Positions 46,128 to 64,000 of a stretch of 64,000 nt of DNA are shown one piece after another. The stretch's first letter is position 1. Each line of letters starts with the position of its first letter. The stretch is from a virus (lineage: Duplodnaviria; Caudoviricetes): the IMG/VR virus record IMGVR_UViG_3300015607_002466, positions 13,394 through 77,393 of that record. One strand, written 5' to 3'. Below the pieces are notes generated by a model that made no database searches, had not been told where the DNA came from, and worked only from the letters and a program-made list of their open reading frames with translations. The position numbers and the translations under genes were made by a program.

Positions 46128-47612
46128 TTAGAAGATTTCGACGTTATATTTTTTCTTGAAATCTTCAGCATCTTGCCACGTGTCAACAAGCGGTTGACCT
46201 TTGATATTCAAGCTCGTGTTGAGCAAGATTGGGCATCCTGTTCTATTATAAAACTCTTTGATCAAATTGTAAACGTTTTCGTTCTGTTCTTTGTTTACGG
46301 TCTGAACACGAGAAGAACCATCAGCGTGGCAAATTGCTGGAAGCAGATCAGGAGTCTTACATTTGGCAGTGAATTGCATGTATGGCGAAGATTGCACTGG
46401 AAGCTCAAAGAACTCGTGTGCGTATTCTTCCAAGACCATTGGCGCAAATGGGCGGAAGCGTTGGCGTTTCTTGATGTCGTTCACTTGATCCTTGACAGTT
46501 TTACCACGGGGGTCAGCTATGAGGGAACGGTTTCCAAGAGCTCGAGGGCCAAATTCGGCTCTTCCGTTTGCCAATGCAGCAATCTTATTAGTCTTTAGTG
46601 TGTCTAAGATCTTAGCCGTCTCAAATGGTCGATCAATGTTGGTACCAAGATATGGGCCTTTCCATTCCAACTGGGTCTTAAGGAATGCGGTTATGGCGCC
46701 AAGAGATGATCCAGCATCTCCTGGATTTGGCATAATCCATACGTTGTCGAAAAGTTTCTTGCCAAACTTCGACATGCTCGCTATTTTTTCATTAGCGACG
46801 CAGTTTAGAGCAACACCCCCAGAAATAACCAAGTTCTTTGACGGAAGATTGGCAAAAATCCACCAAGCTGAAGCTAGCATATAATTCTCAACGACCAACT
46901 GAGCTGAAGCAGCAAGATCGTAGTGATCCTGCTCAGTCACAATTTTATCAGCCATCCAATCCAAGCATCCCATATGAAGATTTCTCTTCAATTCGAAATA
47001 AGGAGCATGGCTGATGTCGATCAAATCTCGTAGAAGGTCATCATAGAATCTTGGTTTACCATAGGCCGCCATACCCATTAGGATAAACTCTTCTTCATTA
47101 GGTTTAAGCCCGACTCGATGTGTTATGGCTGAATAAAACAAACCTATAGAATGGGGGTATTTTTGCGAGAATACCTGCTTTAGTTCAGATCCTGAAGCTT
47201 CCCAAATAGAGGTGGTAATAAATTCACCAATCGCGTCAACTACAAAAATACTAGCGCTCGAGAAACCAGAGGTGAAATAGCCGCCACAGGCATGGGATAG
47301 GTGATGATCAACATACTCTATTTTTGAGGTGAGTCCACAATTTTCTAAGTACTGTTTTGGAAAAGATTTCTTTACTTCTCCCCATTCTCCAGCTAAAGCC
47401 TGACGAAATTTTTTCTTAAGTGGATCCTCAAACCAAACGATCTGATCTGGCTCTCCGTATTTTCGAGCCTCTTTGATGATTTCTAGGTTTAGGTATTTGT
47501 CATTCTTTTTCTTTGAGTAACGCTCGGCATGACCAGCAAAAAGAATTTGATTGTCTTCGACAACAGTAATTGAAGCGTCATGACTTAACGCAGATATTCC
47601 CCAAATTGCCAT
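46128..47612 (-). CDS. Carbamoyltransferase (NodU/CmcH/TobZ family)
   Basis: HDAS, HHLSHA, SGGVALNC, GDAGSSLG, EFGPRALGNRS, FRPFAP and LNTSLN motifs. Confidence 0.93.
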   Translation of the reverse strand: MAIWGISALSHDASITVVEDNQILFAGHAERYSKKKNDKYLNLEIIKEARKYGEPDQIVWFEDPLKKKFRQALAGEWGEVKKSFPKQYLENCGLTSKIEYVDHHLSHACGGYFTSGFSSASIFVVDAIGEFITTSIWEASGSELKQVFSQKYPHSIGLFYSAITHRVGLKPNEEEFILMGMAAYGKPRFYDDLLRDLIDISHAPYFELKRNLHMGCLDWMADKIVTEQDHYDLAASAQLVVENYMLASAWWIFANLPSKNLVISGGVALNCVANEKIASMSKFGKKLFDNVWIMPNPGDAGSSLGAITAFLKTQLEWKGPYLGTNIDRPFETAKILDTLKTNKIAALANGRAEFGPRALGNRSLIADPRGKTVKDQVNDIKKRQRFRPFAPMVLEEYAHEFFELPVQSSPYMQFTAKCKTPDLLPAICHADGSSRVQTVNKEQNENVYNLIKEFYNRTGCPILLNTSLNIKGQPLVDTWQDAEDFKKKYNVEIF

Positions 47613-47621
47613 GGTATTCCC

Positions 47622-47723
47622 TTAGTGGTAAATGAAAGGATCGCTCTTCTTCATTTGTTTGATTTTACGTTTGGTCTCGAAATAGTTTTTTACCAAGTAA
47701 ATCCAGTAGCGAATGGTGTTCAT
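47622..47723 (-). CDS. 33-aa basic micro-protein ending DPFIYH (not in the ORF track)
   Basis: Hand translation MNTIRYWIYLVKNYFETKRKIKQMKKSDPFIYH; SD GGAG and TAAATA upstream; stops 9 nt before the carbamoyltransferase ATG. Confidence 0.75.
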   Translation of the reverse strand: MNTIRYWIYLVKNYFETKRKIKQMKKSDPFIYH

Positions 47724-47771
47724 TTTTTCTCCATAAATAATCTTCGATTGGAATATTTATTGGTACGAAAA

Positions 47772-48209
47772 ATGATACAAATAGCACATCGCGGTAATTT
47801 TGCAGGTCGAAATAAAGAACGTGAAAATACGCTTAGTTATCTTAACGAAGCTATAGACGCGGGGTATGATGTTGAAGTAGATGTTTGGGTAATAGATGGT
47901 AAATTCTTTTTGGGACATGATGGTCCCGAACATCCCATTACCATTTGGGACCTTTTACAAATTGAAGAACACTCTTGGTTCCACGCTAAAAACTATGAAG
48001 CCTTTGTTGAGTTATTGAAGCATGAGCTTCACGTATTCTTTCATGATAAGGACGAATATACACTAACATCACATGGCGTCATTTGGGCTTATTCTGGTAA
48101 ATTCGTTAACGAATACGCAATCGCATGTATGCCTGAAATGACAGAAGGTTTTGAGGTACCAGAAAATGCGATGGGCGTTTGTTCAGATAATTTGAAACCT
48201 ATCGTATAA
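47772..48209 (+). CDS. Minimal glycerophosphodiester-phosphodiesterase-like protein
   Basis: IAHRGN...EN...GYDVEVDVW...LGHD motifs. Start reassigned to ATG 47772. Confidence 0.75.
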   Translation: MIQIAHRGNFAGRNKERENTLSYLNEAIDAGYDVEVDVWVIDGKFFLGHDGPEHPITIWDLLQIEEHSWFHAKNYEAFVELLKHELHVFFHDKDEYTLTSHGVIWAYSGKFVNEYAIACMPEMTEGFEVPENAMGVCSDNLKPIV

Positions 48210-49092
48210 GTCATACCATATACTAGTACACTCTTGTAATCCTTGTTCAAACTTCTCTGTAAATTGTAATACTTCATTTGGATTGTTTTTGAAGTATTCG
48301 TATTCGTATTTGCCTTTTATTCGCATATCACGAACAATCATTACATCAAGAAAATAATCATACATGATTACGCCGTATTTCTGTAAGAAAGAAAACAGTG
48401 TCGCATGGGGGAAGCAGAAATTTGTTTCTTCTTCCTTCCTTTTTGCGTCAATGTATGCACTTGATAGTAAATCTAAAACTTGCGAAGGCCCATAAAAGCT
48501 AAAATCTGGAATTCCTGGAACATCAGAAACGATAGTTCCAAATCTATCTTCAATTTGGACTTCACTAAAGCATTTCAGTTTCTGACCTGGAGTTTTAACA
48601 CTGTCATTGTAATTTAGTCCAAATTTGTCTTTAGCTGAGCATATGTTTTTTACGCAATTGTTTATTTCCCACGAATTCGGTTTAAAGACTATATCAGGTC
48701 GAATTTGAATAACCAGATCATATTTTGCGTTAGAAGATAGTTCAACGCTACGCTTAGATAGGTTCGACAAATAAATCAGCTTCAAAAAAGAGAGTGATGG
48801 GTTTAACGATGCATCAAATTCATGTGTGGTAAACGACACTAGATGCATTTTAGCATCTCTAAAATCTTTCTTTATGCTTTCTTTAATTTCTTCTGTTAAT
48901 GCGATAGAAATTCTTTCAGCACGACAAGTATTTTCTAAAGGATCAACATCATAGTACGTATACGAATCAATATCCCACGTGTCAAAAAAACCAATCTAAT
49001 TTTTGTGGGAACTTTCTAAATGTTTGAAAAATATTGTGTTTACATACATCCCAAGATCGGATGCTTCCGCGAACACATACTGCAATTCTCAT
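48183..49092 (-). pseudogene. GT-like gene split by a +1 frameshift in a T7 run (or expressed by recoding/slippage)
   Basis: ATG 49092 (ATGA overlap) gives MRIAVCVRGSIRSW...LDWFF then TGA. Removing one T gives FFDTWD and joins the 48183-48848 ORF. The paralogue at 52315 reads YFFVTWD. Confidence 0.75.
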
Positions 49093-49727
49093 TTTATATT
49101 CTCCAGTGAAGCATATTCACAGTTCATCCTTTGAAGTAGGCGTTTAATGAAGTAATCTGGTTCAGACTCTTCATAATTTAAAGTGATTCTGTCAGAGTTA
49201 ATAAAGCTTATGATGTTTTGTATATTGTTGAAAATAAACCTATTTCCAGTCATCAAGAAGCTGAATGGATCTTTTCCGGAACTTGCGTTATTTGTCAAAT
49301 AGTATAATTTGTTCGGATTTAGATTAAAGCCATTAAGGGTTTTTAACTTTTCTAAAATTGAAATGTCAAAATCCGTAGTCGGCGTTAATTGAAAATACCA
49401 TTCATACTTATCAATTTTATGTATGAATTGATTAACTTCCCTGAAGTTTTCACAAAGGGTCGCCATTTCATACAGCCTTCTGTTAGAGTGAATAGAAAAC
49501 TGTATTGTAAAAATTATATTCACGACACCAATATTCTGCAAATCTTTTAACATGCCATAAAGGTTAGATTTTAAGAAACCCTCTTCATTAATGGTACAGA
49601 CATAAACATCAAATCTACTATAGTGTTCGGTTTCTTTTAGCAAACCATAAATCCACGAATAGTAAGATTCGTTGAAACGACATTCTACGTCGAGAATGCA
49701 TACGCAAGCAATATCAGATGTGTTCAT
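49089..49727 (-). CDS. Hypothetical, divergent GT-like protein
   Basis: 212 aa, AT-rich, overlapping its neighbours. Confidence 0.55.
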   Translation of the reverse strand: MNTSDIACVCILDVECRFNESYYSWIYGLLKETEHYSRFDVYVCTINEEGFLKSNLYGMLKDLQNIGVVNIIFTIQFSIHSNRRLYEMATLCENFREVNQFIHKIDKYEWYFQLTPTTDFDISILEKLKTLNGFNLNPNKLYYLTNNASSGKDPFSFLMTGNRFIFNNIQNIISFINSDRITLNYEESEPDYFIKRLLQRMNCEYASLENIK

Positions 49728-50688
49728 TTATACCGGGGAAAATTGACATTCGAATAAATTTGTTGGGTATAAGCGGCAAAGTCGCATCAACTTTTACTTC
49801 CCACTTATCTGTGATTCCTAAATATTTATCTTGATCTAAATGCAACCAATTTCCAAATTGAATTAAATTGAACCGTCTCTTAAGCAGCTCCCGTTCAACC
49901 ACAATTTGATTAACGTATTTGTTAACTTCTTGAAAGTTGTTAAGAAGGTGTATCGCGAATTTTTTACTAATGGACGAAATTTCAAACATTCGCTTTCGCT
50001 TATTTAGAAGGTCTACAATTTCTTTGTTTGCAATACAATAACCAATCCTACATCCAGCAGATCCAATACCTTTACTGAAAGAATTTACGAAAACTATGCC
50101 TTTATCAATCCAAGACAATGGAACTTCTGTTTTTCCAAACTCGCCATATGCTTGATCTAACACTATTGGAATATTAGTGAGTGTGAGTTTTTCTATTTCC
50201 GCCAAGGAAACTAAATCCCCAACTGGAGAGTTTGGATTTCCTATAATAATCAGATTCACATTTGGACCACAATATATTTCAGTGTTTAATTTCAACTTGT
50301 TGTCTACAAGTTGGTACTTAAAAGTGATCTTTTTCCCTTGATTCTGTTTGAGATAAACGTCATACATTGGGAAATGTGCTTCTGGCATTACTACTTCCGA
50401 CCCTGGCGAAACAAACACGTCAAACAATGTGTTCAAAACTGAATCAGACCCGGCAGCAACATAAATGTTTTCTTTTGAGACTCCATTAAATTCTGCTAGC
50501 TTTATTCTAAGATCTATATCAGAAGAATAGTAAATAAAATCCTCTTGCGTTAAACTATTTTTGAATGAAGAGAAAAAGGAATCACTGAACGGCAAAGTGC
50601 GCTCGCACATATTAAGACGTCTTTTGTTTGGATCCATTGGACCCATTTCTTTTCTCTCAATTTCGGCTAAATGCAGGTTGAACTTCAT
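49714..50688 (-). CDS. PLP-dependent class I/II aminotransferase (HisC-like)
   Basis: AGSD, NPNSPVG, DQAYGEF and SFSK...RIGY motifs. Confidence 0.88.
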   Translation of the reverse strand: MKFNLHLAEIERKEMGPMDPNKRRLNMCERTLPFSDSFFSSFKNSLTQEDFIYYSSDIDLRIKLAEFNGVSKENIYVAAGSDSVLNTLFDVFVSPGSEVVMPEAHFPMYDVYLKQNQGKKITFKYQLVDNKLKLNTEIYCGPNVNLIIIGNPNSPVGDLVSLAEIEKLTLTNIPIVLDQAYGEFGKTEVPLSWIDKGIVFVNSFSKGIGSAGCRIGYCIANKEIVDLLNKRKRMFEISSISKKFAIHLLNNFQEVNKYVNQIVVERELLKRRFNLIQFGNWLHLDQDKYLGITDKWEVKVDATLPLIPNKFIRMSIFPGINEHI

Positions 50689-51590
50689 ATTATTTCTTGG
50701 AGAATTTTAGTCAGTTCTTTATATGAGCAGTTTTTGCAATGCTCAGTTGGTTGGTTATTCTTACAACCATCTGCAATTTCAATGAACCGTTTATTAGAAA
50801 ATGATTGAGAAACGGCAGGATCAAACACTAGGTTTCCGACAGGTTTTGCTGAGGTATTCATACAACAGATCTTCACGTCCCCATTAACTGACATGTATAG
50901 ACCCTCTTTAACCCAGAAACAGTCATTATAGTCCCAAACTTGGCGACCCTTCATTACGTTTCGATAAGTCTTTAAGAATTCAATATCCTCTTGTTTGAAG
51001 CCGTTGATTATCCCTTCAACCTTTTCATCTTCGCTCCAGTTTTGAACTACATTCAAACGCAGTTCATCTAAGTTGAAACGCTCCAATAGCCTTTCTACTT
51101 TTGGTATATCGTACACATTGTCAGGATTAATCGTGTAGTTGATTGCGATTTTGCAGTTAAACCTGTCGCATTCCTTAAGTTCTGAAAGAAACTTTAAAAG
51201 CTTTGACCATTTTGCCGGCTTTCTAAACTTTTCATACGTCTCACCATATCCATCAATACTAAGATACAGTAGGTCAATAAATTCTAGGGATCGTTTGAAA
51301 TTTCCGCTCAACTGAAATTGACCATTAGTTGCGCTAATTATTTTAGCATTTGGGAAAGTTTCTTTTGTCAGACGACAAATCTCAGAAAACTTTGGATGGA
51401 GGAAAGGTTCACCCATCCCCATAAGTTTTATTTCTTCGATTGGATGGTTTTTGATTTTGCTTAATACGACCTTATATGTCTCAACAGACATATGTTCAGA
51501 TTTGGAGACGACCTCTTCCCTATTACAAAATGAACAATTCAGATTGCAATATGATGTCGTCTCCAAATAGGCGTATTTTATTTTACGCAT
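50685..51590 (-). CDS. Radical SAM protein with a SPASM/twitch domain
   Basis: CNLNCSFC, GEPFLHP and C-terminal C...GDVKICC...CKNC. Confidence 0.9.
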   Translation of the reverse strand: MRKIKYAYLETTSYCNLNCSFCNREEVVSKSEHMSVETYKVVLSKIKNHPIEEIKLMGMGEPFLHPKFSEICRLTKETFPNAKIISATNGQFQLSGNFKRSLEFIDLLYLSIDGYGETYEKFRKPAKWSKLLKFLSELKECDRFNCKIAINYTINPDNVYDIPKVERLLERFNLDELRLNVVQNWSEDEKVEGIINGFKQEDIEFLKTYRNVMKGRQVWDYNDCFWVKEGLYMSVNGDVKICCMNTSAKPVGNLVFDPAVSQSFSNKRFIEIADGCKNNQPTEHCKNCSYKELTKILQEII

Positions 51591-52318
51591 TATTCACCAT
51601 CAGTTATATGAGCAGAAGCTTTTCTATCAAGATATTCTGCCAATTCTTCAGGAGTTCCTACTTGATCTACATGATTGACGTATTCGATTGTTATCTTCTT
51701 GTCAATAGCATAGTTATAAACTGGAGCAACATAGAATTCGTTGTTGGTTCTATCATTAGCCGCAATCATAGCTTTAGCAGCGTCCATGAAGTATTGCCAC
51801 TTCTTCCAGTAGTACATTCCACTAGTTGCATGTTCGCTTATCTGTTTTTTCTCAGCGACTTCAGTTACTAAGCCCTGTAGATTTACTTTCGCATAAGACC
51901 ATTTAGTGCCCTCTCCAGGGAAACAGAAGATGCAGCCACCAAACTCAGAATTTTCTAGAGTGTCTATAACGTCACGATCCCAATGAACTAATTGATCACT
52001 ATTAACCAACATGACGGAATCATCCGGTGATAATACCTTATCTGCCAGCATAACAGTACAAGCTGCACCTTCGGTCAAACCATCAACTTCAACAATTTTG
52101 TAGTTGCTAAGAAATGAAGAAAATAATCGATGTAGATCGTATTTTTCAACGTGCGCTTTTTGGCATAGAAAAATGTGCTCATGCCCCATCATTCCTACGT
52201 GCTCAACTACATGACGTATCATAGGCTTACCAAGAAACTCGATAAGAGGTTTTGGATTTTCATAACCCTGTGAGCTAAACCTACTACCTAGTCCTGCCAT
52301 TGGTACAATAATTTTCAT
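51590..52318 (-). CDS. Sugar/polyol-phosphate nucleotidyltransferase-family protein
   Basis: PMAGLGSRF...PKPLI, GAACTV and VAEKKQIS motifs. Confidence 0.85.
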   Translation of the reverse strand: MKIIVPMAGLGSRFSSQGYENPKPLIEFLGKPMIRHVVEHVGMMGHEHIFLCQKAHVEKYDLHRLFSSFLSNYKIVEVDGLTEGAACTVMLADKVLSPDDSVMLVNSDQLVHWDRDVIDTLENSEFGGCIFCFPGEGTKWSYAKVNLQGLVTEVAEKKQISEHATSGMYYWKKWQYFMDAAKAMIAANDRTNNEFYVAPVYNYAIDKKITIEYVNHVDQVGTPEELAEYLDRKASAHITDGE

Positions 52319-53199
52319 TTTAGATTCTCTTTCTTATCTTTAAAGTTTTGATTTGCTCGTTTAACCTGGTCAAGTGTTTTTTCGCTTGGATTGAAAAAGT
52401 TAACTGGTTCATTAAAATATTCTAAAGGTCGAACAATTTCGGCATCCTTTATAAACATAATGACTGGTAGAGTAGTATTTACTAATTTGAAATTTAAGAA
52501 ATGATCTGCCAACATGTTGTGCGGATGTAGATGTTTTATCATCTCGTCGCGCCTTCTATTGTAGAGAAAGGCAAATTCTGACGTCAAAATATCTGAGGTG
52601 AAACCATTTGAAATAAAAAACACGTCTTCGACAAATAATGAGTTAGGATTACTGACTTTTGCGTTTTTAATTTCATGTTTTCGTGGCAAGATTTCTATCT
52701 TAGCGCCAAATACAAAGTCATTTATAGGAGCATTAATGTCTTGGTGCTCTTTAAAGAATTCCTGCTTGTGCTGAGCTAGATATAAATCTGGTCTAGCTTC
52801 AAACACTAAATCAAAATAGCAATTGTTTTCTATCTCATAATTTTGCTTTAACAATCCTGAAATGTATCGAACATAGCTTATCAAGTGATATTCTTCTGGA
52901 AGGCTAATATCCTTAATAAATTCTTTTACCTTGTGGTAATCTAGTATGTGTAATTGTAGATTTTTTCCTTCAAAATCGAATTTTATACTATTAACGTCGA
53001 TAGACGAGAGGTTTTTAAATTCAAATTTTGTTATATTTGATTTTGTGTCGATAGAAAAATACGTACAATCCCATGTCACAAAAAAGTAAACGATGTTGAA
53101 ATGTTCTTCATACGGCTTAAAAGCTTCAAATATACTAAACTTAGCGTTATTCCAAGATCTAACTTGGCCCCTTAAAATGACAGCAAGATTCTTTTTCAT
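52315..53199 (-). CDS. GT-like hypothetical protein
   Basis: AVILRGQ.R...FFVTWD...FDLVFEARPD pattern. Confidence 0.6.
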   Translation of the reverse strand: MKKNLAVILRGQVRSWNNAKFSIFEAFKPYEEHFNIVYFFVTWDCTYFSIDTKSNITKFEFKNLSSIDVNSIKFDFEGKNLQLHILDYHKVKEFIKDISLPEEYHLISYVRYISGLLKQNYEIENNCYFDLVFEARPDLYLAQHKQEFFKEHQDINAPINDFVFGAKIEILPRKHEIKNAKVSNPNSLFVEDVFFISNGFTSDILTSEFAFLYNRRRDEMIKHLHPHNMLADHFLNFKLVNTTLPVIMFIKDAEIVRPLEYFNEPVNFFNPSEKTLDQVKRANQNFKDKKENLK

Positions 53200-53762
53200 A
53201 ATTCACTCGACAATAAAGGGACACCAATCCTATGGGCAATAAAAGAGATGAGTCCACCAGGATTAGATTCAAGTTCTTTAACACTCCTAATGGAGCTAAC
53301 CAGAATCTTCAATATTGCTGGATTCACAATAAAAATCATGTCGCTAAGCTCATTAAGCGAATTGAACTTGTTAAAAGATTTAATGGGTAGATAAATCTGT
53401 TTTGGGTTATTCACAATAACATTGAGCTGACTTTTTAGTGTGTCCTTTTTGATGTCGACGAATTTCATCAAATTGACTTGCTTAACGTCTGATAAATTCA
53501 GAACAACATCAAACATATTTTGTAGTTCTATTTCTTGTTTGTTAACAAAAAGCACGGTTTTTCTTAAAGCTTCTGATATTTTTACCCCATTAGGATAACG
53601 AATAAGCGTTATATTCTGATTCAGGTTAATGTTAAAATCTGAAACACAATGAATAAGCAAATGGCAGTTTAATCCATCTGTTATTTGCGAAAGAATATTA
53701 GTTAGAATTTTTTTATTGACTATCTGCGGGGAAATCAAAATTAAATTTATCAGAACGTTCAT
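53196..53762 (-). CDS. Hypothetical, possibly degenerate GT-like protein
   Basis: 188 aa, very AT-rich, coupled to its neighbours. Confidence 0.5.
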   Translation of the reverse strand: MNVLINLILISPQIVNKKILTNILSQITDGLNCHLLIHCVSDFNINLNQNITLIRYPNGVKISEALRKTVLFVNKQEIELQNMFDVVLNLSDVKQVNLMKFVDIKKDTLKSQLNVIVNNPKQIYLPIKSFNKFNSLNELSDMIFIVNPAILKILVSSIRSVKELESNPGGLISFIAHRIGVPLLSSEL

Positions 53763-54375
53763 AAATTTCTTTCACTAGCTTAGAATTTAACATACCAAAC
53801 GATTTCACATGTACTACGTTGGCTTTACTTGCTTTAGCAGCTGTTAATCCAACCTCACTATCTTCAAAAATAACAGTTTGGTTAGGTGTTGATCCTAATG
53901 ATTCTATAGCGAAGCAATACATGTCTGGGCTAGGCTTTGATTTAAAACTTGAATCATTTCCAAGTGATAAATCTACCAACTCATCGATACCTAATTCGGA
54001 TTTAATGAAAGAGATGTATTCTGATCTAGCGTTTGAAACTAACGCAGTTTTTATTCCTTTGTCTTTTAAGAACGTAAAGATTTCTTTACTTTCTTTGTTA
54101 AATTTTTCATCGTGTAGCTTAAGCTCTTCTAAAAGATAATCAAATTTTTTCTTAAGAAACTCGGCCTTTAATAAAGGATCAACCGAAAAGCTAAATTTTT
54201 TAGCAAAGTATTCAAGCTTCAAAAACGTTGGTATTGGACCAAGGAATAGATCTTCTTCTAAGGAAATAGTAATTCCAAAGAATTCGTTTAAAGCTCTTCT
54301 TAGTGAAGTGAAATTAGCTAACTCACTGTCAATTAAAACGCCATCTATGTCAAACACGAATGATTTCATTTCCAT
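53713..54375 (-). CDS. HAD-family phosphatase (beta-PGM-like)
   Basis: FDIDGVLIDS, VSNA and KPSPD...IFEDS..G motifs. Confidence 0.9.
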   Translation of the reverse strand: MEMKSFVFDIDGVLIDSELANFTSLRRALNEFFGITISLEEDLFLGPIPTFLKLEYFAKKFSFSVDPLLKAEFLKKKFDYLLEELKLHDEKFNKESKEIFTFLKDKGIKTALVSNARSEYISFIKSELGIDELVDLSLGNDSSFKSKPSPDMYCFAIESLGSTPNQTVIFEDSEVGLTAAKASKANVVHVKSFGMLNSKLVKEIYERSDKFNFDFPADSQ

Positions 54376-55316
54376 TTTTCCATAACCTTTTTAAATCCTT
54401 CGCGACTTCTTAGTTTATTATAGAAAGTTTTGCTATAATTCCAATGCGAATTGGGGCCTGGATGCATTCCATCTCTCCCAATGTTTTGTTTAAAAGGTCT
54501 CTCAAAATTAGGCAATACTACACCCTCGTCTTGCAAGAATTCAGAATGAATGATATGCTCTCTTAAATCCTTTGGTGCATTCAACATCATGGCGTCGCCA
54601 AAACCTAAAAACTTATTGTTACAAAAATCTATTTTAGTGGTATCCCAAGTATAAAAATAAAATGGAATATTTTGAGAATCTAGAAACAGTTTAAGAAATA
54701 GTAGATTTCTAAATGCTTCATGGAGACGGTGTAAAGGGTTAAATGACTTTAAATAATTTGAGTGAATATTCTTTACTATTGGATCGGTAAACTTGTCATA
54801 AGTTGTAATGAATCCATACATCTCTATTTGATTATAACTGTTTTGGAATAAAATTTCACTCCTAGTTATAGATGGTAGTAATAGCAATACCACATCTGGA
54901 ACAAAAATCTTATTTTTGATAGTTAAGTATGTAAATCTGGTAATAGCGTCAATTGAGAAACCCCCATACCCAATGTTATACATTTTGGGAGTTTTTCCTA
55001 TTTCTTTCGAAATGAATCCATTTACAAAACTAGCCCAAGTATGTTCTACAGGAAGGCCTACTCCTTCTGTTATAGAACATCCCGAATAGAGAATTTTGAC
55101 AGGGTCATTGTTGTCAAAATTCTCACTTCTAAAGCCATAAGAATTCCTACGGTAAAAAAATTGATCTTTACCGTAGGTTAAGAACTTATTATTTTTAGTT
55201 ACTTTTTTGAAATTATCTTCGCAGTCCGGGCCATTCCACTGCTCTATTTTATTTTTTGTTGATGCTAAATAATCAAAACGATAGTCATCCCAGAAGTTTA
55301 AATCTGTGTTGGTCAT
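54366..55316 (-). CDS. SGNH-hydrolase-like protein
   Basis: NSYGFRS, GCSITEG (Ser nucleophile) and DGMHPG (DxxH). Confidence 0.7.
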   Translation of the reverse strand: MTNTDLNFWDDYRFDYLASTKNKIEQWNGPDCEDNFKKVTKNNKFLTYGKDQFFYRRNSYGFRSENFDNNDPVKILYSGCSITEGVGLPVEHTWASFVNGFISKEIGKTPKMYNIGYGGFSIDAITRFTYLTIKNKIFVPDVVLLLLPSITRSEILFQNSYNQIEMYGFITTYDKFTDPIVKNIHSNYLKSFNPLHRLHEAFRNLLFLKLFLDSQNIPFYFYTWDTTKIDFCNNKFLGFGDAMMLNAPKDLREHIIHSEFLQDEGVVLPNFERPFKQNIGRDGMHPGPNSHWNYSKTFYNKLRSREGFKKVMEKWK

Positions 55317-55360
55317 AATTTACAAAAATAGAATTTGATCAAATTCTATTTATCAGAAAA

Positions 55361-56893
55361 TTACTCTGCGGTTTCTTTAAACTCTTGCGAACCTGGATTT
55401 GCACCTTGAGGATTTAAAACCCAACCCTCTTTTTTAGCTTTCTCTTTTAGTTCCTCAGCAATTTGGTCTGCATATCCGGAAGAATCACCGCTTTTAAATT
55501 GGATTAGCGGCTGAATGTTTGTCTCAGGAATTCCATCATACCATTCAATTAGGTCAGAATGATCTTTGAATGTTTCACGGAAATTCTTTCCACGGCGCAT
55601 GTCATATTGAGTAAAGAATGACTTGAAATCACGCTCACGAGATTCAATAGAAGAGGTATGTGAATGTCCTACTTCGACATTCTTGATATAAGCAATCAAG
55701 CGCTCAAGGCTATCTTTTTCAAATTGATCAAAGTATGGGCGATTCTTGTTCTCATTGAACCATTTCTCAATGATTGCACCTTGCTTCTCTCGAATATGTT
55801 TAGGCAAAGTAACAATTGACATGAAACTTGGGAAGCGGAGAATGTTGAAGCTCATATAAGGAGACTTCTTCTTGTATTGCTCCTTTACTTTGAACATCTC
55901 CTCCATAAATTCTACTAGACTGAATAGGCAAAGGCTATTATTTGTGAGCATTGCATGCATGGCATGACAATTGCCCTCATTGCTCATTAGGTGTAGATTC
56001 TCTAACCAAGTATCCCAAACAAGACCGTCACGAATGTACTCCGCATGCGCACCAAATGCTTCATTAGACGTATAAAGTTCAAAATGCTTGAATGAACGAG
56101 AAGATTCTGCTAGACGCTGAATCAACGACTTTTTTGCGCCAAGGTTAGAGTTGACAGCAAGGTTCACTTCACATTCTGGATGCTGTTTCCACCAATCCAT
56201 CAACTTCCAGAATTCTGGAGACATGGTTGCTTCACCACCAGTAATACGAAGTTCCTTCAAAGATTTTTGAAGATCGCTTTCCCACCATTTCCAAAACGCC
56301 TCAATGTAAGGATTACCTTCATTCTTTAGGCCATATGGAATTGTCCAAGATCCATCTTGTTGGAATGCTCCGGCTCCGTCACTTACTAGATTTTGGTACG
56401 GGCCGTTAGTCTTTACATCACCTTGCCAGGAGGTAGAGAAACTTGGATTGCAATACGAACAAGAGAAGTTACAATTTGAATCAAAGGCTATTTCAAGGGT
56501 TTTGAGGTCAACATCAGCATTTGCGCCAAGATCGAACGCGCATGCTTGTAGATCTGCGTCAGAGTAAATTACGGATTTGTAAACACGATCTGAGACTTTG
56601 TCAGGACCTAACGCCTCAACTCTCCAACAATAATCACATTCTTTTGGTTTTTGACCAAGCAACATTTCTTGGCGAACGAGCTTCTTGTATTCGGTATTGT
56701 GAAGAGCCTTCATGGACTTCTTTAGCTCATCAAGAGGAATCTTATGAGCCGGAGGGTGATGGCAAGACGCGGTCATCCCGTTGTTTAACCATATAGAAGC
56801 ATTATACCATTTTGCGCCGCAGAAGCTCGGTGAAATCGGGTCAACAACCCGATCCCGATACTCTTGGAAAGATTCGTTAGCTTTCTTGAACAT
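55361..56893 (-). CDS. Radical SAM protein with an N-terminal twitch-like Cys cluster
   Basis: FCGAKW...SCHH, CDYCW, CNFSCSYC and ITGGEA motifs. Confidence 0.88.
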   Translation of the reverse strand: MFKKANESFQEYRDRVVDPISPSFCGAKWYNASIWLNNGMTASCHHPPAHKIPLDELKKSMKALHNTEYKKLVRQEMLLGQKPKECDYCWRVEALGPDKVSDRVYKSVIYSDADLQACAFDLGANADVDLKTLEIAFDSNCNFSCSYCNPSFSTSWQGDVKTNGPYQNLVSDGAGAFQQDGSWTIPYGLKNEGNPYIEAFWKWWESDLQKSLKELRITGGEATMSPEFWKLMDWWKQHPECEVNLAVNSNLGAKKSLIQRLAESSRSFKHFELYTSNEAFGAHAEYIRDGLVWDTWLENLHLMSNEGNCHAMHAMLTNNSLCLFSLVEFMEEMFKVKEQYKKKSPYMSFNILRFPSFMSIVTLPKHIREKQGAIIEKWFNENKNRPYFDQFEKDSLERLIAYIKNVEVGHSHTSSIESRERDFKSFFTQYDMRRGKNFRETFKDHSDLIEWYDGIPETNIQPLIQFKSGDSSGYADQIAEELKEKAKKEGWVLNPQGANPGSQEFKETAE

Positions 56894-57870
56894 TATTCGT
56901 TTTCAGTAGTTAGGGGGTTTTTAGACTTCTTGACTTGACCAGCCAAAGAGTACTTAAAGAATTTGCTTTGTTCCGCATTTAGGTCTGCGACGTCAACACC
57001 TAGACCCTTTTGAAGTTCGTCTTTGATACGAGAATTTTCTGTCATTAGTTTAGACAAATCATATTCAATACCAGAACGGGAGCAACGCATAATGGTCATG
57101 AAGTCTGATCTGGAGTCCGGGACAAATTGAGGAAGGATTTCTTCAGCAAAGTACTTTTTGAACCAATCGTAATCACTGATGTTTGCCATCTGAAAATCAT
57201 CAGTCAAATTGGTTAGATACATTCCTAGGCGAGTTCCATAAATTGCCCAAAGACCGTTATCCGCATCTGCGCCAACAGAAGCCCAAATGAGCAAACGACG
57301 AAGGTTTTCACGGTAGATATGGTTCTTCATTTTAGCAGGATCGATTTTGTTACCACGATCCAAAGTCATCTTTACACCTTCGCGGAAACCTGCACGGAAA
57401 GCTTGGAATGGAGAACCATTTGGGAAAGTATCAGAATAAGTGTTGCGTAGCTGAACGTACTTATCTTTCCAACAGAAATCCAACTTCTCATCCTCAGACT
57501 CAGCATTTTCATGGGTCTTCATATTGAGAACAAAGTCTTTAGTCCAGAGTTTTAGGCCACCGTTACCATAAGTCAAACCGTTGATAGCATTAACAGAATT
57601 CCAGCTTAGGACACAGTCTTCGTATTTTTCAGGGATATCGATCTCGCATTCAAAAAATTCTGGATAAACGACATTATCTCCGTCGACGGTAATAAATCTA
57701 TCGGTTTCTGACGCATTTGCTGCAGCTTTGTGCGCACTGTCGAAACCTTTTACACCGTCGATTCGTTTTGCCCAAGGGGCAATGTCTAGTAGTTTTGCCC
57801 AAAACTCTTCCTTTTGTGGCTCATCATAAGAAATGTAGAAAATGTCAAATTCAGAAATTTGCTGAGTCAT
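56893..57870 (-). CDS. GT-A-like glycosyltransferase
   Basis: DIFYISYDE, AHKAAA and TVDGDN (DxD). Confidence 0.6.
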   Translation of the reverse strand: MTQQISEFDIFYISYDEPQKEEFWAKLLDIAPWAKRIDGVKGFDSAHKAAANASETDRFITVDGDNVVYPEFFECEIDIPEKYEDCVLSWNSVNAINGLTYGNGGLKLWTKDFVLNMKTHENAESEDEKLDFCWKDKYVQLRNTYSDTFPNGSPFQAFRAGFREGVKMTLDRGNKIDPAKMKNHIYRENLRRLLIWASVGADADNGLWAIYGTRLGMYLTNLTDDFQMANISDYDWFKKYFAEEILPQFVPDSRSDFMTIMRCSRSGIEYDLSKLMTENSRIKDELQKGLGVDVADLNAEQSKFFKYSLAGQVKKSKNPLTTENE

Positions 57871-57874
57871 TGTT

Positions 57875-58915
57875 TCACCTGAAAATGGAAATGAAATTTT
57901 TTGAAATTTTAAGTGGGAAAATGTCTAATTCGTCTGGATCAATCGACGGATTAGAAAATTTTAGGGTTGTGTTGTCTTTAAGGGTGATCGTTCTGTAGAC
58001 GATTGAACTATCGTATTTATTCTTCAAAACCAGCACCGCTTCGGGCAATGTTTCCCCAAAACTCAAATTGTTTGAAATGACAATTTTATCACCGCTCAAG
58101 TTTACTTTCACTTCACCTTTAATGTTGTTCAAAACATTGATGTCTGTACTTCTCAAATGAAAACGGCTGGTAAAGAACGACATTTCAGTCAGCTTACAAT
58201 TGCTGAAGTTTAATTTGAAAGTTTGATCTCGTTTAAACTGGATTAGTTTGATGAGGAATGAAGGATCATTTTTGTTGGTGATTGCCAAAAAGAAATCATT
58301 GAATGCTTCAGGAGAAACGTTAGCGCATCTAGCAACAATTGAATTTTCAGCGTAATCGAAATCTATTTCGCAAATACGATTCTTTGACTTTTCTACATGA
58401 CGAGATAGGGAAGTATCAATCTCCGCGAATGACAAAAAGTCAATTCGATTCTTGAAAAGATTAGATCCGTCATCTTCTCCTTTTGGGGAATAAGCTAAAG
58501 CGACAACTCCATTATTTGTTACAACTTTCCAATCTTCGAAAGTGGTGTCATGTGCTAAAAGAGAATATGCTACTCGAGTATCGACGACTACAAAATTTTG
58601 TTTGTTTTCATCGAGTTCTTTCTTTTCTGGTTTTTTAACAACTACTTTTTGCAGTTCAAGCGTATCAACCGAAAAAACAACAAAGAATTCAGATTGTTTA
58701 GGGAATAGTGATTTGTCGATAACGTAAGGAGGCGTCGCATATTGATTGACGATCAATTGATCATCAGTCAGGGAACCATCTAGCAGACGTTTCGAAATCG
58801 CTTCTTCAAGCTTGATAGCGATCACAAACGGATCGCTAGTTTCATCGTCTCGATCTACCTTTAGTGTCTTATCATTTTGAGTATCGTAGTGAAGATAGAA
58901 TTGAGGAAAAGACAT
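57875..58915 (-). CDS. Hypothetical protein
   Basis: 346-aa ORF inside the GT operon. Confidence 0.6.
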   Translation of the reverse strand: MSFPQFYLHYDTQNDKTLKVDRDDETSDPFVIAIKLEEAISKRLLDGSLTDDQLIVNQYATPPYVIDKSLFPKQSEFFVVFSVDTLELQKVVVKKPEKKELDENKQNFVVVDTRVAYSLLAHDTTFEDWKVVTNNGVVALAYSPKGEDDGSNLFKNRIDFLSFAEIDTSLSRHVEKSKNRICEIDFDYAENSIVARCANVSPEAFNDFFLAITNKNDPSFLIKLIQFKRDQTFKLNFSNCKLTEMSFFTSRFHLRSTDINVLNNIKGEVKVNLSGDKIVISNNLSFGETLPEAVLVLKNKYDSSIVYRTITLKDNTTLKFSNPSIDPDELDIFPLKISKNFISIFR

Positions 58916-58916
58916 A

Positions 58917-59795
58917 TCAAATTCCTAGCTTTCTTTCCATTTGGCTAATCATTTCATCAGTAAGAAAATCTTTGACGAAGTAATGGAATGGCAGAGTTTG
59001 TAGATAGTTACCAATCTTCAATTGGCAGTCATTGTTGTGATAAACCTGAATCATATTAGACCAGTCTTCAGTCATCATAGTATCTTCTGGCCAATTCTGT
59101 AGACGGCTCTTCATGTGTACAAAGGTTGGAAAATCTTCGGCCAAAGTTCTATTTTTGTTCAGCTCTTCGATGTCGAGAATCTTAGCAGCAAGGGCAAACA
59201 CTACGTCGGTACTCACAACTCTTGGACGCTGTTCGGGTTTAAAGAACTCGTAGAAGAAACGTTCCCAGTTGTTGAAAATGATTTCAGATAGCTTAAAGAA
59301 CTCGTATGATTCGTCAGATTTATCAAAATAGAAATACGCTGAATAGACGTTTGGTAGATCGTTTTCTGTATAAACCTTGCGATAATAATCGCTCGTAACA
59401 GTCTCACCACGATAGGTCTTCGCATTGGTAGCAAAAACCAACTTTGAGCCTTTCATGTAATCAAACCAGTGGGATTTGTCTGAAAGGAAAAGCATGTCAG
59501 CATCAAGTTTGACCGTATGATCAAATGGTGACATGTAAATCGATTTCCATTCGTTCTCAAGCTTCCAAGAAGATTTTGCTGCGTGATCTTTCCAGGGAAT
59601 GTCGATGATGTTCTCGATCCCAATTACCTCTTTAAGCTTTGGGTTAATTGCGGATTTTTCTTCAGGAGTCACACCGATTGCAAGTTGATTGCGACCTTTA
59701 GGTTGAGTTAGCAACAGTGATAGGGCTAATCCGTATGCAAACCGTTGATATTGCCTACCCTGAGCAATGGTAAAATACCCGTAAGTTTCGCTCAT
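58917..59795 (-). CDS. GT8-like glycosyltransferase
   Basis: SPFDHTVKLDADMLF (DxD). Start reassigned to ATG 59795 (ATGA overlap). Confidence 0.65.
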   Translation of the reverse strand: MSETYGYFTIAQGRQYQRFAYGLALSLLLTQPKGRNQLAIGVTPEEKSAINPKLKEVIGIENIIDIPWKDHAAKSSWKLENEWKSIYMSPFDHTVKLDADMLFLSDKSHWFDYMKGSKLVFATNAKTYRGETVTSDYYRKVYTENDLPNVYSAYFYFDKSDESYEFFKLSEIIFNNWERFFYEFFKPEQRPRVVSTDVVFALAAKILDIEELNKNRTLAEDFPTFVHMKSRLQNWPEDTMMTEDWSNMIQVYHNNDCQLKIGNYLQTLPFHYFVKDFLTDEMISQMERKLGI

Positions 59796-60691
59796 TTTAC
59801 TACCTTCATAATCTTTTCGTAATTGTTCAACAATGAAATTTTGTTCAAGCAATGAACATTAACTCCTTTGACCTTGGAAATATAGAACTTATAGTTTTCC
59901 ACTGGATCATTCGCATAGAAGCTGATAGACTCTTTATCGTCGAATGAAATAAATTGGTCAGTGTCGATAGCGGTGAGTATTGCTGGATCAGGAAACGACT
60001 TCACAAAGTCTTCATCATCAATAAACCCGTTCAACATATGCAAAGCAATAGAGAACGCAAAGTCATTTCTGTACAAGGTGCTAGAAAAGTCGTAAACGTG
60101 CTTGTAATAATTCCAAGTTTCTTTGACGTGTTCAATCAAATCGAAGATTAGCTTAGCTTTTTCAGATTTCTTAAAGTAAACGATGGTTGCCCAATACATG
60201 CGAATACCAAATGGATTGAGTCTAAACTCTGGTCCTTGGAGCTCTTTGTGGAACAACGTCTTAGCGCTCTTATTGATTAGGAAATCTTCATTGCAACCCC
60301 ATACCGTGTTCAGACTATCATTCAAAACAAAATAGTCCACGTCAATAAGTAGTGTCTCATCATAAGGCGTCAAATTGTAAGCACTTGATCGAGCCTTATT
60401 TTGAAACTTTGCTCGAACCTCATGGTAACGAGTATCTCGATAAACGCGAATATTGGTTTGCTGAGATTCGTCGTAATCAGTGATGATGATCTTATCAAAC
60501 AGAGCTTTAATTTCATTTTGCTCTGATTCTTTAAATCCATCTATAGAATATTGGGTCGTGATTAGCGAAACTTTGGTATTCTTGCCCATGTGGTTCTTCA
60601 CACAATTTGCGGCAATTATCGCTAATTTGACGTAATTTATTCGTTCGTTGTTCTCAGCGAACAACAAAACTCCACGTGAAGATTTTTCCAT
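59792..60691 (-). CDS. GT8-like glycosyltransferase (paralogue of the downstream gene)
   Basis: TPYDETLLIDVDYF (DxD) and YRNDFAFSIA. Confidence 0.65.
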   Translation of the reverse strand: MEKSSRGVLLFAENNERINYVKLAIIAANCVKNHMGKNTKVSLITTQYSIDGFKESEQNEIKALFDKIIITDYDESQQTNIRVYRDTRYHEVRAKFQNKARSSAYNLTPYDETLLIDVDYFVLNDSLNTVWGCNEDFLINKSAKTLFHKELQGPEFRLNPFGIRMYWATIVYFKKSEKAKLIFDLIEHVKETWNYYKHVYDFSSTLYRNDFAFSIALHMLNGFIDDEDFVKSFPDPAILTAIDTDQFISFDDKESISFYANDPVENYKFYISKVKGVNVHCLNKISLLNNYEKIMKVVK

Positions 60692-60692
60692 G

Positions 60693-61094
60693 TTACCAAG
60701 TCACCACTTTAGATGTCGTTCTTAGCTTCTTAAACTTCTCATACTCAATGAGATAGTCGTTCATCCCTTCTTGGTAGATGTCAAGAATATTCTCGTAGAA
60801 ATCTTCTAGGTCGTCAATCTTAACAGGATTTTCATTGGAGTCAAGAATGACAGCTGACTTCTTAGACTGTGATATGGCAAAAATAAACGAGATAAAATCT
60901 TGGGTGATTTTGAAGATACCACCATTCTGAGAATACACAAGGTGATTCTTTAGCTTTAGTTTTGAGTTTTCGCGTTGGATATTCAGGGTCAAACGGTAAT
61001 TTGAGGATTCAAGAGCCCTTGCTAGGCGCTCATCAACAGCAGCCTCAACTACTTCGGTTTCGACAATGGTTGGGTTGGCGGATTGTTCTGCCAT
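60693..61094 (-). CDS. Hypothetical protein leading the GT operon
   Basis: 133 aa, SD GGAG, sigma70-type promoter upstream. Confidence 0.6.
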   Translation of the reverse strand: MAEQSANPTIVETEVVEAAVDERLARALESSNYRLTLNIQRENSKLKLKNHLVYSQNGGIFKITQDFISFIFAISQSKKSAVILDSNENPVKIDDLEDFYENILDIYQEGMNDYLIEYEKFKKLRTTSKVVTW

Positions 61095-61176
61095 GTTATT
61101 CTCCGTTTTTGTTATGGTTATAGAGCTACTTATAGTTCCAGAAAACTATAATGGCAACGTCATTTCTAACATTGCC

Positions 61177-61205
61177 ATTATATCATGCTTTGGAACTTTT
61201 GTAAA
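61177..61205 (-). promoter_or_regulatory. sigma70-type promoter TTTACA-N17-TATAAT
   Basis: Upstream of 61094, at the head of the GT operon. Confidence 0.8.
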
Positions 61206-61206
61206 C

Positions 61207-62754: not shown

Positions 62755-62762
62755 TATTTATA
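62755..62762 (-). promoter_or_regulatory. T4-late-type promoter TATAAATA
   Basis: Upstream of the structural gene at 62673. Confidence 0.7.
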
Positions 62763-63940: not shown

Positions 63941-64000
63941 GTCTTTTTCTCCTTATGTCAAGACCTAATATTTATAACCATAAATATCCCCAGCAGTAGT

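Follow-up and report, generated by a model that had tools for sequence, protein, structure and literature searches.

Hypervariable islands next to tail-fibre genes that combine GT8 glycosyltransferases, lipopolysaccharide (LPS)-type sugar genes and exchangeable radical S-adenosylmethionine (SAM) cassettes are already known from large myoviruses, namely as the host recognition cluster of pelagimyophages and cyanomyophages (Zaragoza-Solas et al., 2020; PMC7029224). That cluster was described from annotation, without experiments, and was interpreted as serving modification of the host O-chain. A comparable island of genes occupies positions 46128-61094 of the DNA analysed here, which is the last 64 kb (hereafter the window) of the 77-kb IMG/VR virus record IMGVR_UViG_3300015607_002466 (Caudoviricetes). 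The CheckV completeness of the record is 22%, which would correspond to a genome of roughly 350 kb; elsewhere the window encodes a 2255-residue virion structural protein, a family-B DNA polymerase, a peptidase/endolysin and PhoH. The phage is an RsoM2USA-like jumbo phage and not a pelagimyophage. The gene order of its island (115-residue protein, GT8, GT8, GT-A glycosyltransferase and N-terminal-twitch radical SAM enzyme), the promoter and the carbamoyltransferase/SGNH set do not appear in PMC7029224. The elements that are new here are an anatomy of three modules, the separation of core and decoration genes in RsoM2USA and a cassette that nearly all relatives lack.

Several other systems share individual components with this cluster. 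Phage DNA hypermodification (glucosylated 5-hydroxymethylcytosine, 5hmC, in T4, glycosyltransferases linked to 5mYOX or ThyS, and 5-carbamoyloxymethylcytosine) employs the same GT-A and NodU/TobZ-type enzyme classes, but its hydroxylated-pyrimidine step is absent from two complete relatives of this phage, and the carbamoyltransferase in the window is flanked by glycosyltransferases (GTs), as in the 'unmodified contig' type. In giant viruses, cytoplasmic GT-A enzymes (A64R of PBCV-1; R699 and R655 of Mimivirus) build glycans of capsid or fibril proteins and are structural neighbours of the GT-A enzyme in the window; these are viruses of eukaryotes, and the likeness is at the level of the fold only (Z of 7.7-8.6, 12-13% identity). 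Mycobacteriophage GTs encoded near structural genes reportedly modify virion proteins in the cytoplasm (Freeman et al., 2023, as cited in PMC12619734). Systems of this kind comprise one or two GTs and are not known to include a radical SAM enzyme, carbamoyltransferase or precursor cassette. Amidation of the Campylobacter jejuni capsule involves a HAD phosphatase (Cj1435) and HisC/CobD-like pyridoxal phosphate (PLP) enzymes (Cj1436 and Cj1437). Its pairing of a HAD phosphatase with a PLP enzyme for a small phosphorylated substrate, in a locus for glycan decoration, has a parallel in the present cluster, which has no ATP-grasp ligase; the resemblance is a lead only.

The cluster consists of 17 genes between 61094 and 46128, one fewer than the first-pass annotation had estimated. 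All but one are on the minus strand (16 of 17), and most of the minus-strand genes overlap or abut by 1-14 nt, in line with the translational coupling proposed in that annotation. The same annotation had seen here a single pathway of sugar activation, transfer and O-decoration. This class of pathway is supported by the enzyme families, by the folds and by the companions of the radical SAM family elsewhere. Glycan-type enzymes do stand together, but the cluster is composite, with three modules that are each conserved differently: a conserved core operon (55361-61094), a decoration set and an AT-rich exchangeable cassette (47772-55316), the GC content of which is 34.2% compared with 39.3% for the core and 40.0% for the window. 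We consider that there is about an even chance that these modules form a fully cytoplasmic phage system for glycan assembly and tailoring in which the acceptor is phage-made and is most likely to be a virion or fibre protein. A phage-made cytoplasmic target is favoured by the lack of any membrane helix in the cluster and by the absence of the known DNA routes from the two complete relatives.

Since single-sequence searches of Pfam, PHROG and NCBIfam gave no match for nine of the 17 genes, profiles were built with homologues from related loci. A scan of IMG/VR with the 510-residue radical SAM enzyme returned at least 592 confirmed relatives, and 80 loci were kept for comparison. Family, profile and PDB/Atlas searches assigned neither a family nor a fold to 49089-49727, 53196-53762, 57875-58915 and 60693-61094. 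The core operon and the virion gene that precedes it have the following features.

61207-62673, minus strand: fibre-like virion protein of 488 residues, context gene and candidate acceptor (weak PHROG matches)
61177-61205, minus strand: predicted sigma-70-like promoter, TTTACA-17-TG-TATAAT, a sequence match only (11 of 12 consensus positions)
60693-61094, minus strand: small protein of the 115-residue family (133-residue open reading frame, ORF), first gene of the operon (family defined by homologues)
59792-60691, minus strand: GT8/glycogenin-like glycosyltransferase 1, DxD motif DVD (joint paralogue profile)
58917-59852, minus strand: GT8/glycogenin-like glycosyltransferase 2, DxD motif DAD (joint paralogue profile)
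57875-58915, minus strand: ORFan of 346 residues in a variable slot that separates the GT8 pair from the GT-A gene (homologues without domains)
56893-57870, minus strand: predicted GT-A-fold glycosyltransferase of 325 residues (AlphaFold2 model and fold comparison)
55361-56893, minus strand: N-terminal-twitch radical SAM enzyme of 510 residues (NF033640, 303.8 bits)

The core is present in 24-29 of the 80 loci. Its order (fibre-like gene, 115-residue-family gene, GT8, GT8, a variable small gene, GT-A and one or more radical SAM genes) is kept in 25 of 26 IMG/VR loci and in RsoM2USA. RsoM2USA, a 344-kb jumbo phage of Ralstonia, is the only cultured relative among 50,697 phage records; it was the sole match there in protein searches with the radical SAM enzyme and the GT-A gene, and megablast of the whole cluster against the same records gave no match. 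Its genes gp355-349 have the same core order directly after gp356, with gp355 as the fibre-like homologue. In the RsoM2USA paper, gp356 was assigned to an abundant virion protein band by liquid chromatography-tandem mass spectrometry; the tail sheath is gp359. Among phages from soil, marine and freshwater samples, the core GTs share 40-60% identity. The core is found in two relatives with complete genomes, G001 (523 kb), in which a carbamoyltransferase is present as well, and G002 (424 kb). Judged from sequence counts, the module is abundant, with 826 clusters of the 115-residue marker at 50% identity and at least 592 IMG/VR matches to the radical SAM enzyme.

The fibre-like family lies directly upstream of the 115-residue-family gene in 25 of the 26 related loci that have the latter. 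Residues 3-133 of the fibre-like protein show weak PHROG matches to tail-fibre and virion structural families; the N-terminus is conserved and the remainder is variable. Members of the 115-residue family (826 representatives at 50% identity) are nearly all standalone proteins of about 115 residues, and the gene is always located between the fibre-like gene and the GT8 genes. The family has no Pfam match, and its profile found no credible match in the PDB. In two of the related loci (L013/L014, 4476-6131) the first GT8 gene is fused to an N-terminal domain of ∼330 residues and stands directly after the 115-residue gene.

The first-pass annotation had pointed to three GT-like genes with DxD motifs, and all three were substantiated, two as GT8-like by profile and one as GT-A by its predicted fold. 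The two GT8-like genes are paralogues, and their joint profile matches glycogenin-1 in the PDB (E ∼1e-7) over about 110 residues, from the nucleotide-binding region through the D-A-D motif, with D117 and D119 nearly invariant. The relationship comes from the profile search alone, as none of 39 members reached an E value of 0.05 when searched singly against Pfam for PF01501. The true start of the second GT8-like protein is probably Met20, at 59795, and its homologues align from residue 25 onward. The adjacent 346-residue ORFan has 19 metagenomic homologues, none with Pfam domains, and gave no usable Atlas match; in other loci the same slot holds unrelated small genes.

The profile of the 325-residue family returned only noise from the PDB and Pfam, and the fold therefore had to be predicted. 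The AlphaFold2 model has a predicted local distance difference test (pLDDT) score of 92.6. Foldseek matches it to RmlT, TarS and PBCV-1 A64R (probability 1.0 to RmlT and A64R), and residues 1-150 give VIA Z scores of 9-10 to B4GALNT1, CHSY3, STIV A197 and SpsA; the superposition on B4GALNT1 has a Z score of 9.9 and an r.m.s.d. of 3.1 over 142 residues. Both aspartates of the family motif D63-G-D65 are kept in at least 90% of members. These results point to a glycosyltransferase, with the reservation that nucleotidyltransferases share the fold and appear among the structural matches. No CAZy family could be assigned. The gene is present in 29 of the 80 related loci.

The 510-residue protein is a clear member of NF033640 (N_Twi_rSAM; 303.8 bits against a cut-off of 170), a named family for which the reaction is not known; here and in relatives it forms tandem arrays of 2-8 diverged paralogues. 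Across 39 diverse paralogues, Cys141, Cys145 and Cys148 of the CX3CX2C motif and the N-terminal cysteines 25, 44, 86 and 89 are invariant. The alignment of these 39 was too divergent for a genome scan, for which a narrower alignment was used. In 81 viral loci we found 287 family members, typically 2-8 in tandem, which fall into 42 subfamilies at 45% identity. There was no sequence match in the PDB, and no publication was found on the function of the N-terminal-twitch family or joining it with a carbamoyltransferase, a jumbo phage or a tail fibre. The genomic company of the family is consistently glycan-related. Phage loci of a second type have a methyltransferase, a GT2-like gene and two genes with GT7 and lectin domains in front of the arrays, and genes for UDP-glucose dehydrogenase, NAD-epimerases, SGNH proteins and a tail sheath behind them. 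In a species-representative genome set, nearly all family matches are in metagenome-assembled genomes (MAGs) of Bdellovibrionota (Bacteriovoracaceae, Bdellovibrio and Halobacteriovorax), where megabase contigs carry members at 30-35% identity next to GT1 (six ORFs), GT2, ABC-2 exporters, SPASM radical SAM enzymes, a carbamoyltransferase and APS kinase. The longest arrays, with five to eight N-terminal-twitch genes in a row, are in contigs binned as Bacteriovoracaceae/Bdellovibrionales (L084, 10001-21352; L085, 4169-11410). Six further contigs that bear 'MAG' labels such as Rickettsiales, Legionellales, Fischerella and Pelagibacter (L101, L102, L106, L152, L155 and L157) contain the phage core and appear to be phage DNA in the wrong bin.

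Together with the radical SAM enzyme, two further genes make up the decoration set.

54366-55316, minus strand: SGNH-like esterase or acyltransferase of 316 residues (profile and conserved residues)
46128-47612, minus strand: NodU/TobZ-type O-carbamoyltransferase (PF16861 and PF02543)

A single-sequence Pfam search with the SGNH-like protein was negative. Its profile matches GDSL/SGNH esterases with an E value of 5e-4 in the block I region only, and Gly79, Ser81, Gly119, Asp282 and His285 are invariant in 14 homologues, which supplies the block I serine, the block II glycine and the D-x-x-H motif and upholds the earlier assignment. The carbamoyltransferase scores 186.3 bits with PF16861 (cut-off 27) and 143.4 bits with PF02543 (cut-off 24), matches NovN, GdmN and TobZ in the PDB at E values of 1e-42 to 1e-61 and is 48% identical to RsoM2USA gp199. 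Its 160.9 bits with the NodU equivalog NF041651 lie far from the cut-off of 1000, and by these sequence comparisons it is a member of the family and not NodU itself. The 'carbamoylated glycan' of the first-pass annotation is one candidate product, as phage enzymes of the same family also carbamoylate 5hmC in DNA (PMC8670742). The decoration set is separable from the core: in RsoM2USA, an orthologue of the radical SAM enzyme, three SGNH/DUF6071-like genes and the carbamoyltransferase stand together ∼90 kb from the core.

The remaining genes belong to the AT-rich cassette.

53713-54375, minus strand: HAD-superfamily phosphatase or phosphomutase, beta-PGM-like (PF00702, 82 bits)
53196-53762, minus strand: ORF of 188 residues (no family match)
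52315-53199, minus strand: protein of 294 residues, tentatively a GT-A-like transferase (weak model)
51590-52318, minus strand: sugar-phosphate (or phospho-alcohol) nucleotidyltransferase (PF00483, 37.9 bits)
50685-51590, minus strand: radical SAM enzyme with a SPASM-type C-terminus (PF04055, 51.2 bits)
49714-50688, minus strand: HisC/CobD-like fold-type I PLP enzyme (PF00155, 117 bits)
49089-49727, minus strand: ORF of 212 residues (no family match)
48183-49092, minus strand: split paralogue of 52315-53199 (BLASTP E value of 5e-5 to the 294-residue protein)
47772-48209, plus strand: half-length GDPD-like ORF (PF03009 below cut-off; phrog_34507)

The carbamoyltransferase, PLP enzyme, nucleotidyltransferase and HAD enzyme named by the first-pass annotation are each above their Pfam cut-offs, and both radical SAM enzymes are confirmed by scores above cut-off (PF04055 for 50685-51590 and NF033640 for 55361-56893). 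The HAD enzyme scores 80 bits with TIGR02009, below the cut-off of that model. The PLP enzyme matches HisC in the PDB (E value of 2e-18) and has the lysine motif SFSK, but its 149.6 bits with TIGR01141 are below the cut-off of 276.55; by sequence it is in the HisC/CobD subfamily without being HisC, and aminotransferase and decarboxylase are both candidate activities. The SPASM domain of the second radical SAM enzyme (PF13186) is exactly at its cut-off of 21.5 bits, and no NCBIfam equivalog was reached. The nucleotidyltransferase matches PDB entry 4evw, a nucleoside-diphosphate-sugar pyrophosphorylase, over its full length with an E value of 4e-18.

For up to four other GT-like genes, as initially suggested, the evidence points to two at most, one of them frameshifted, and the rest found no support. 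The 294-residue protein has only nine homologues and no Pfam match; its AlphaFold2 model is poor (pLDDT of 53), with a VIA Z score of 9.5 to GT-A enzymes, and on this model it and its broken paralogue are tentatively GT-A-like. Its Atlas neighbours are viral hypothetical proteins, DUF7796, DUF8374 and Sulfotransfer_2; the sulfotransferase-like and DUF8374 leads could not be confirmed. The paralogue, of ∼302 residues, is split into two frames by one extra T (+1) in a run of seven T at ∼48980-48990, and three-frame translation of 48183-49092 places its N-terminal piece in another frame. This frameshift could be an assembly error, a pseudogene or a slippage-based switch. Profile comparison did not support the 212-residue and 188-residue ORFs as degenerate paralogues of the 294-residue family. 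The GDPD-like gene does not hold up as initially annotated: its match to PF03009 is below threshold (16.7 bits against 23.6) and covers only profile positions 1-44 of 244; residues 50-157 match phrog_34507 with an E value of 3e-25. It probably starts at 47772, giving 145 residues or about half a GDPD domain. For most cassette genes the 80 viral loci offer no counterpart; the GDPD-like, HAD and nucleotidyltransferase genes are the only ones to recur there, as a trio in L050 and L052; one of the mis-binned phage contigs, L152, has a GDPD-like gene, a nucleotidyltransferase and a SPASM radical SAM gene.

With regard to the target, the first-pass annotation had left virion, host surface and DNA side by side; the absence of membrane proteins, the linkage to a fibre-like gene and the DNA routes of relatives narrow this choice without settling it. 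No cluster protein contains a membrane helix (no hydrophobic 19-mer above 1.65 on the Kyte-Doolittle scale). Neither Pfam matches nor membrane helices reveal an initiating phosphoglycosyl transferase, flippase, polymerase or exporter among the cluster proteins, and the cluster is thus not a self-sufficient surface-polysaccharide locus. Known cases of pyrimidine glycosylation or carbamoylation in DNA all start at 5hmC, 5-hydroxycytosine (5hoC) or 5-hydroxymethyluracil (5hmU), which are made by a thymidylate-synthase (TS) homologue or by a C5-methyltransferase together with a Tet-like dioxygenase (PMC8670742; PMC13326640; bioRxiv 10.1101/2023.12.21.572611). This route is absent from the complete genomes of G001 and G002, which have a single canonical ThyA (PFNIASY), no Tet/JBP and no C5-methyltransferase. 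In both genomes thyA is located at the downstream edge of the glycan cluster (G001, 60618-61625; G002, 334991-336022; loci L163 and L164), with a mid-protein insertion of about 40 residues in G001 and about 50 residues in G002.

The following scheme is our proposal for how the three modules could act; its reaction order, substrates and acceptor are inferred from the enzyme families and gene order. The core operon would be transcribed from its own sigma-70-like promoter just behind the fibre-like gene. A short conserved glycan would be assembled by the two GT8 (retaining) enzymes and the GT-A enzyme with its DxD motif. Its acceptor would be made by the phage and reside in the cytoplasm, the most likely candidates being the neighbouring fibre-like protein and other virion proteins, and the 115-residue protein would serve as an adaptor, chaperone or primer. 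A conserved acceptor supplied by the phage would also fit the 40-60% identity of the core across habitats better than a variable host LPS. The N-terminal-twitch radical SAM enzyme might then edit the sugar by radical hydrogen abstraction (oxidation, epimerization or a similar change), the SGNH protein would handle O-acyl groups and the carbamoyltransferase would O-carbamoylate from carbamoyl phosphate and ATP. In the cassette, the HAD enzyme may function as a phosphatase or mutase. A nucleoside diphosphate (NDP)-linked donor may be the product of the nucleotidyltransferase and would be tailored by the SPASM radical SAM enzyme together with the HisC-like PLP enzyme. The result would be an unusual nucleotide-activated amino- or phospho-substituent, attached by the GT-A-like transferases of the cassette itself, which would give this phage its own glycan variant.

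It is unlikely, in our estimate, that the soluble GTs and decorating enzymes act instead on LPS-core, O-antigen or capsule intermediates at the cytoplasmic face of the host membrane, a remodelling that would alter the cell surface and, for example, exclude other phages or stop re-adsorption of progeny. The GT8 and radical SAM cassettes of pelagimyophages were interpreted in this sense (PMC7029224), GT8 is a classical LPS-core family, the bacterial radical SAM homologues adjoin GT1, GT2 and ABC-2 exporter genes, and a sigma-70-like promoter is compatible with early expression. However, membrane-anchored enzymes, flippases, polymerases and exporters are all missing from the cluster, and its core is nearly always linked to a fibre-like virion gene; the core GTs retain their identity across habitats, in one case in a phage of Ralstonia, while host LPS cores differ. 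Furthermore, no phase of lysogenic conversion is known for these jumbo phages, which are lytic. Hypermodification of the phage DNA, in which the GTs would glycosylate and the carbamoyltransferase would carbamoylate hydroxymethyl- or hydroxycytosine and thereby evade restriction, appears improbable. Phage carbamoyltransferases do make 5-carbamoyloxymethylcytosine (PMC8670742), and GT-A-fold phage GTs glycosylate 5hmC from clusters that can adjoin structural genes (bioRxiv 10.1101/2023.12.21.572611). On the other hand, carbamoyltransferases of the DNA type lie within 3 kb of a TS homologue, MazG and dCMP deaminase, whereas those of unmodified contigs are flanked by GTs, as is the gene in the window (PMC8670742). 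The 325-residue GT has D-G-D and not the R...DDD...EDY/F signature of the DNA GT-A enzymes. No hydroxymethylase or other pyrimidine-hydroxylation route was found in the 77-kb record, itself 22% complete, and G001, which has a carbamoyltransferase, shares with G002 a canonical ThyA (Asn) as its only TS.

The DNA reading does draw on RsoM2USA, a phage with two TS homologues: a canonical Td and, at another place in the genome, ORF10 (L161, 7739-8398). ORF10 has a G-N-D-A-P motif, with Asp as the specificity residue; the published annotation calls it a thymidylate synthase. This motif resembles that of T4 gp42 (dCMP hydroxymethylase). A pathway for a free small molecule or secondary metabolite, such as an aminoglycoside-like or nucleotide-linked compound that is released or acts as a cofactor or inhibitor, is in our view highly improbable. 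Points in its favour are the role of BtrN and other twitch radical SAM enzymes in aminoglycoside pathways, the action on antibiotics of those solved carbamoyltransferases that are closest (NovN, GdmN and TobZ) and the likeness of the cassette to a pathway for precursors. A polymeric or macromolecular acceptor is nevertheless a better fit to the number of transferases (three to five), their constant position after a virion gene and the hundreds of module variants, and no scaffold-forming enzyme (cyclase, polyketide synthase or nonribosomal peptide synthetase) is present.

Some of these points weigh against a virion or fibre protein as the acceptor. Every substrate named above, like the acceptor, is a candidate. 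The RfaI/J-type GT8 enzymes of the LPS core are also soluble or peripheral, such that host lipid-linked acceptors are compatible with the lack of helices. Timing is another point, since the sigma-70-like promoter of the operon suggests transcription early or midway in infection, but a late-type TATAAATA box may serve the fibre-like gene. ORF10 hints at modified cytosine in RsoM2USA DNA. The published view of the pelagimyophage islands as serving host O-chain modification (PMC7029224), the location of DNA-glycosylating clusters near structural genes (bioRxiv 10.1101/2023.12.21.572611) and the action of phage carbamoyltransferases on 5hmC in DNA (PMC8670742) count on the same side. In addition, only ∼22% of the genome is in view and its nucleotide metabolism lies beyond it. 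A more far-reaching form of the virion-glycan proposal is possible but doubtful: a fibre or virion protein coated with an O-antigen-like glycan, the inner part of which is conserved (GT8-GT8-GT-A with the 115-residue protein) and the outer part of which is hypervariable, written by swappable cassettes and tandem N-terminal-twitch arrays, with the N-terminal-twitch proteins as a new class of radical enzymes that edit sugars during or after attachment to a macromolecule.

If glycosylation of virion proteins is correct, a widespread group of giant phages would build complex, strain-specific glycans on its own particles, with consequences for how these phages recognise hosts, escape defences or grazers and keep their particles stable, and NF033640 would gain a first biological context and a testable class of substrate. 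The cultured phage RsoM2USA carries the conserved parts, and bench tests are therefore possible.

The sigma-70-like site in front of the operon occupies the only sizeable gap, between the fibre-like gene and the operon, and is the best such site of the region. In the same gap, 13 of 26 related loci have a match of at least 10/12, and two of them have 12/12. Since sigma-70-like sites in the region are not above chance (47 observed against 54 expected), only the position and conservation of this site carry weight. A 16-bp hairpin overlaps its -10 box (window 61147-61182, minus strand) and may be regulatory or due to chance. T4-late-type TATAAATA boxes are located at 62755-62762 and 63969-63976 on the minus strand, upstream of the fibre-like gene and of a 113-residue gene, respectively; the motif count in the window (five against 2.7 expected) is not above chance. 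The contrast between late-type boxes for the fibre-like gene and a sigma-70-like promoter for the glycan operon suggests different timing. Finally, proteins identical to the products of 52315-53199 and 57875-58915 are recorded on a contig of 156,692 bp, and a longer assembly of the same phage thus exists in public data.

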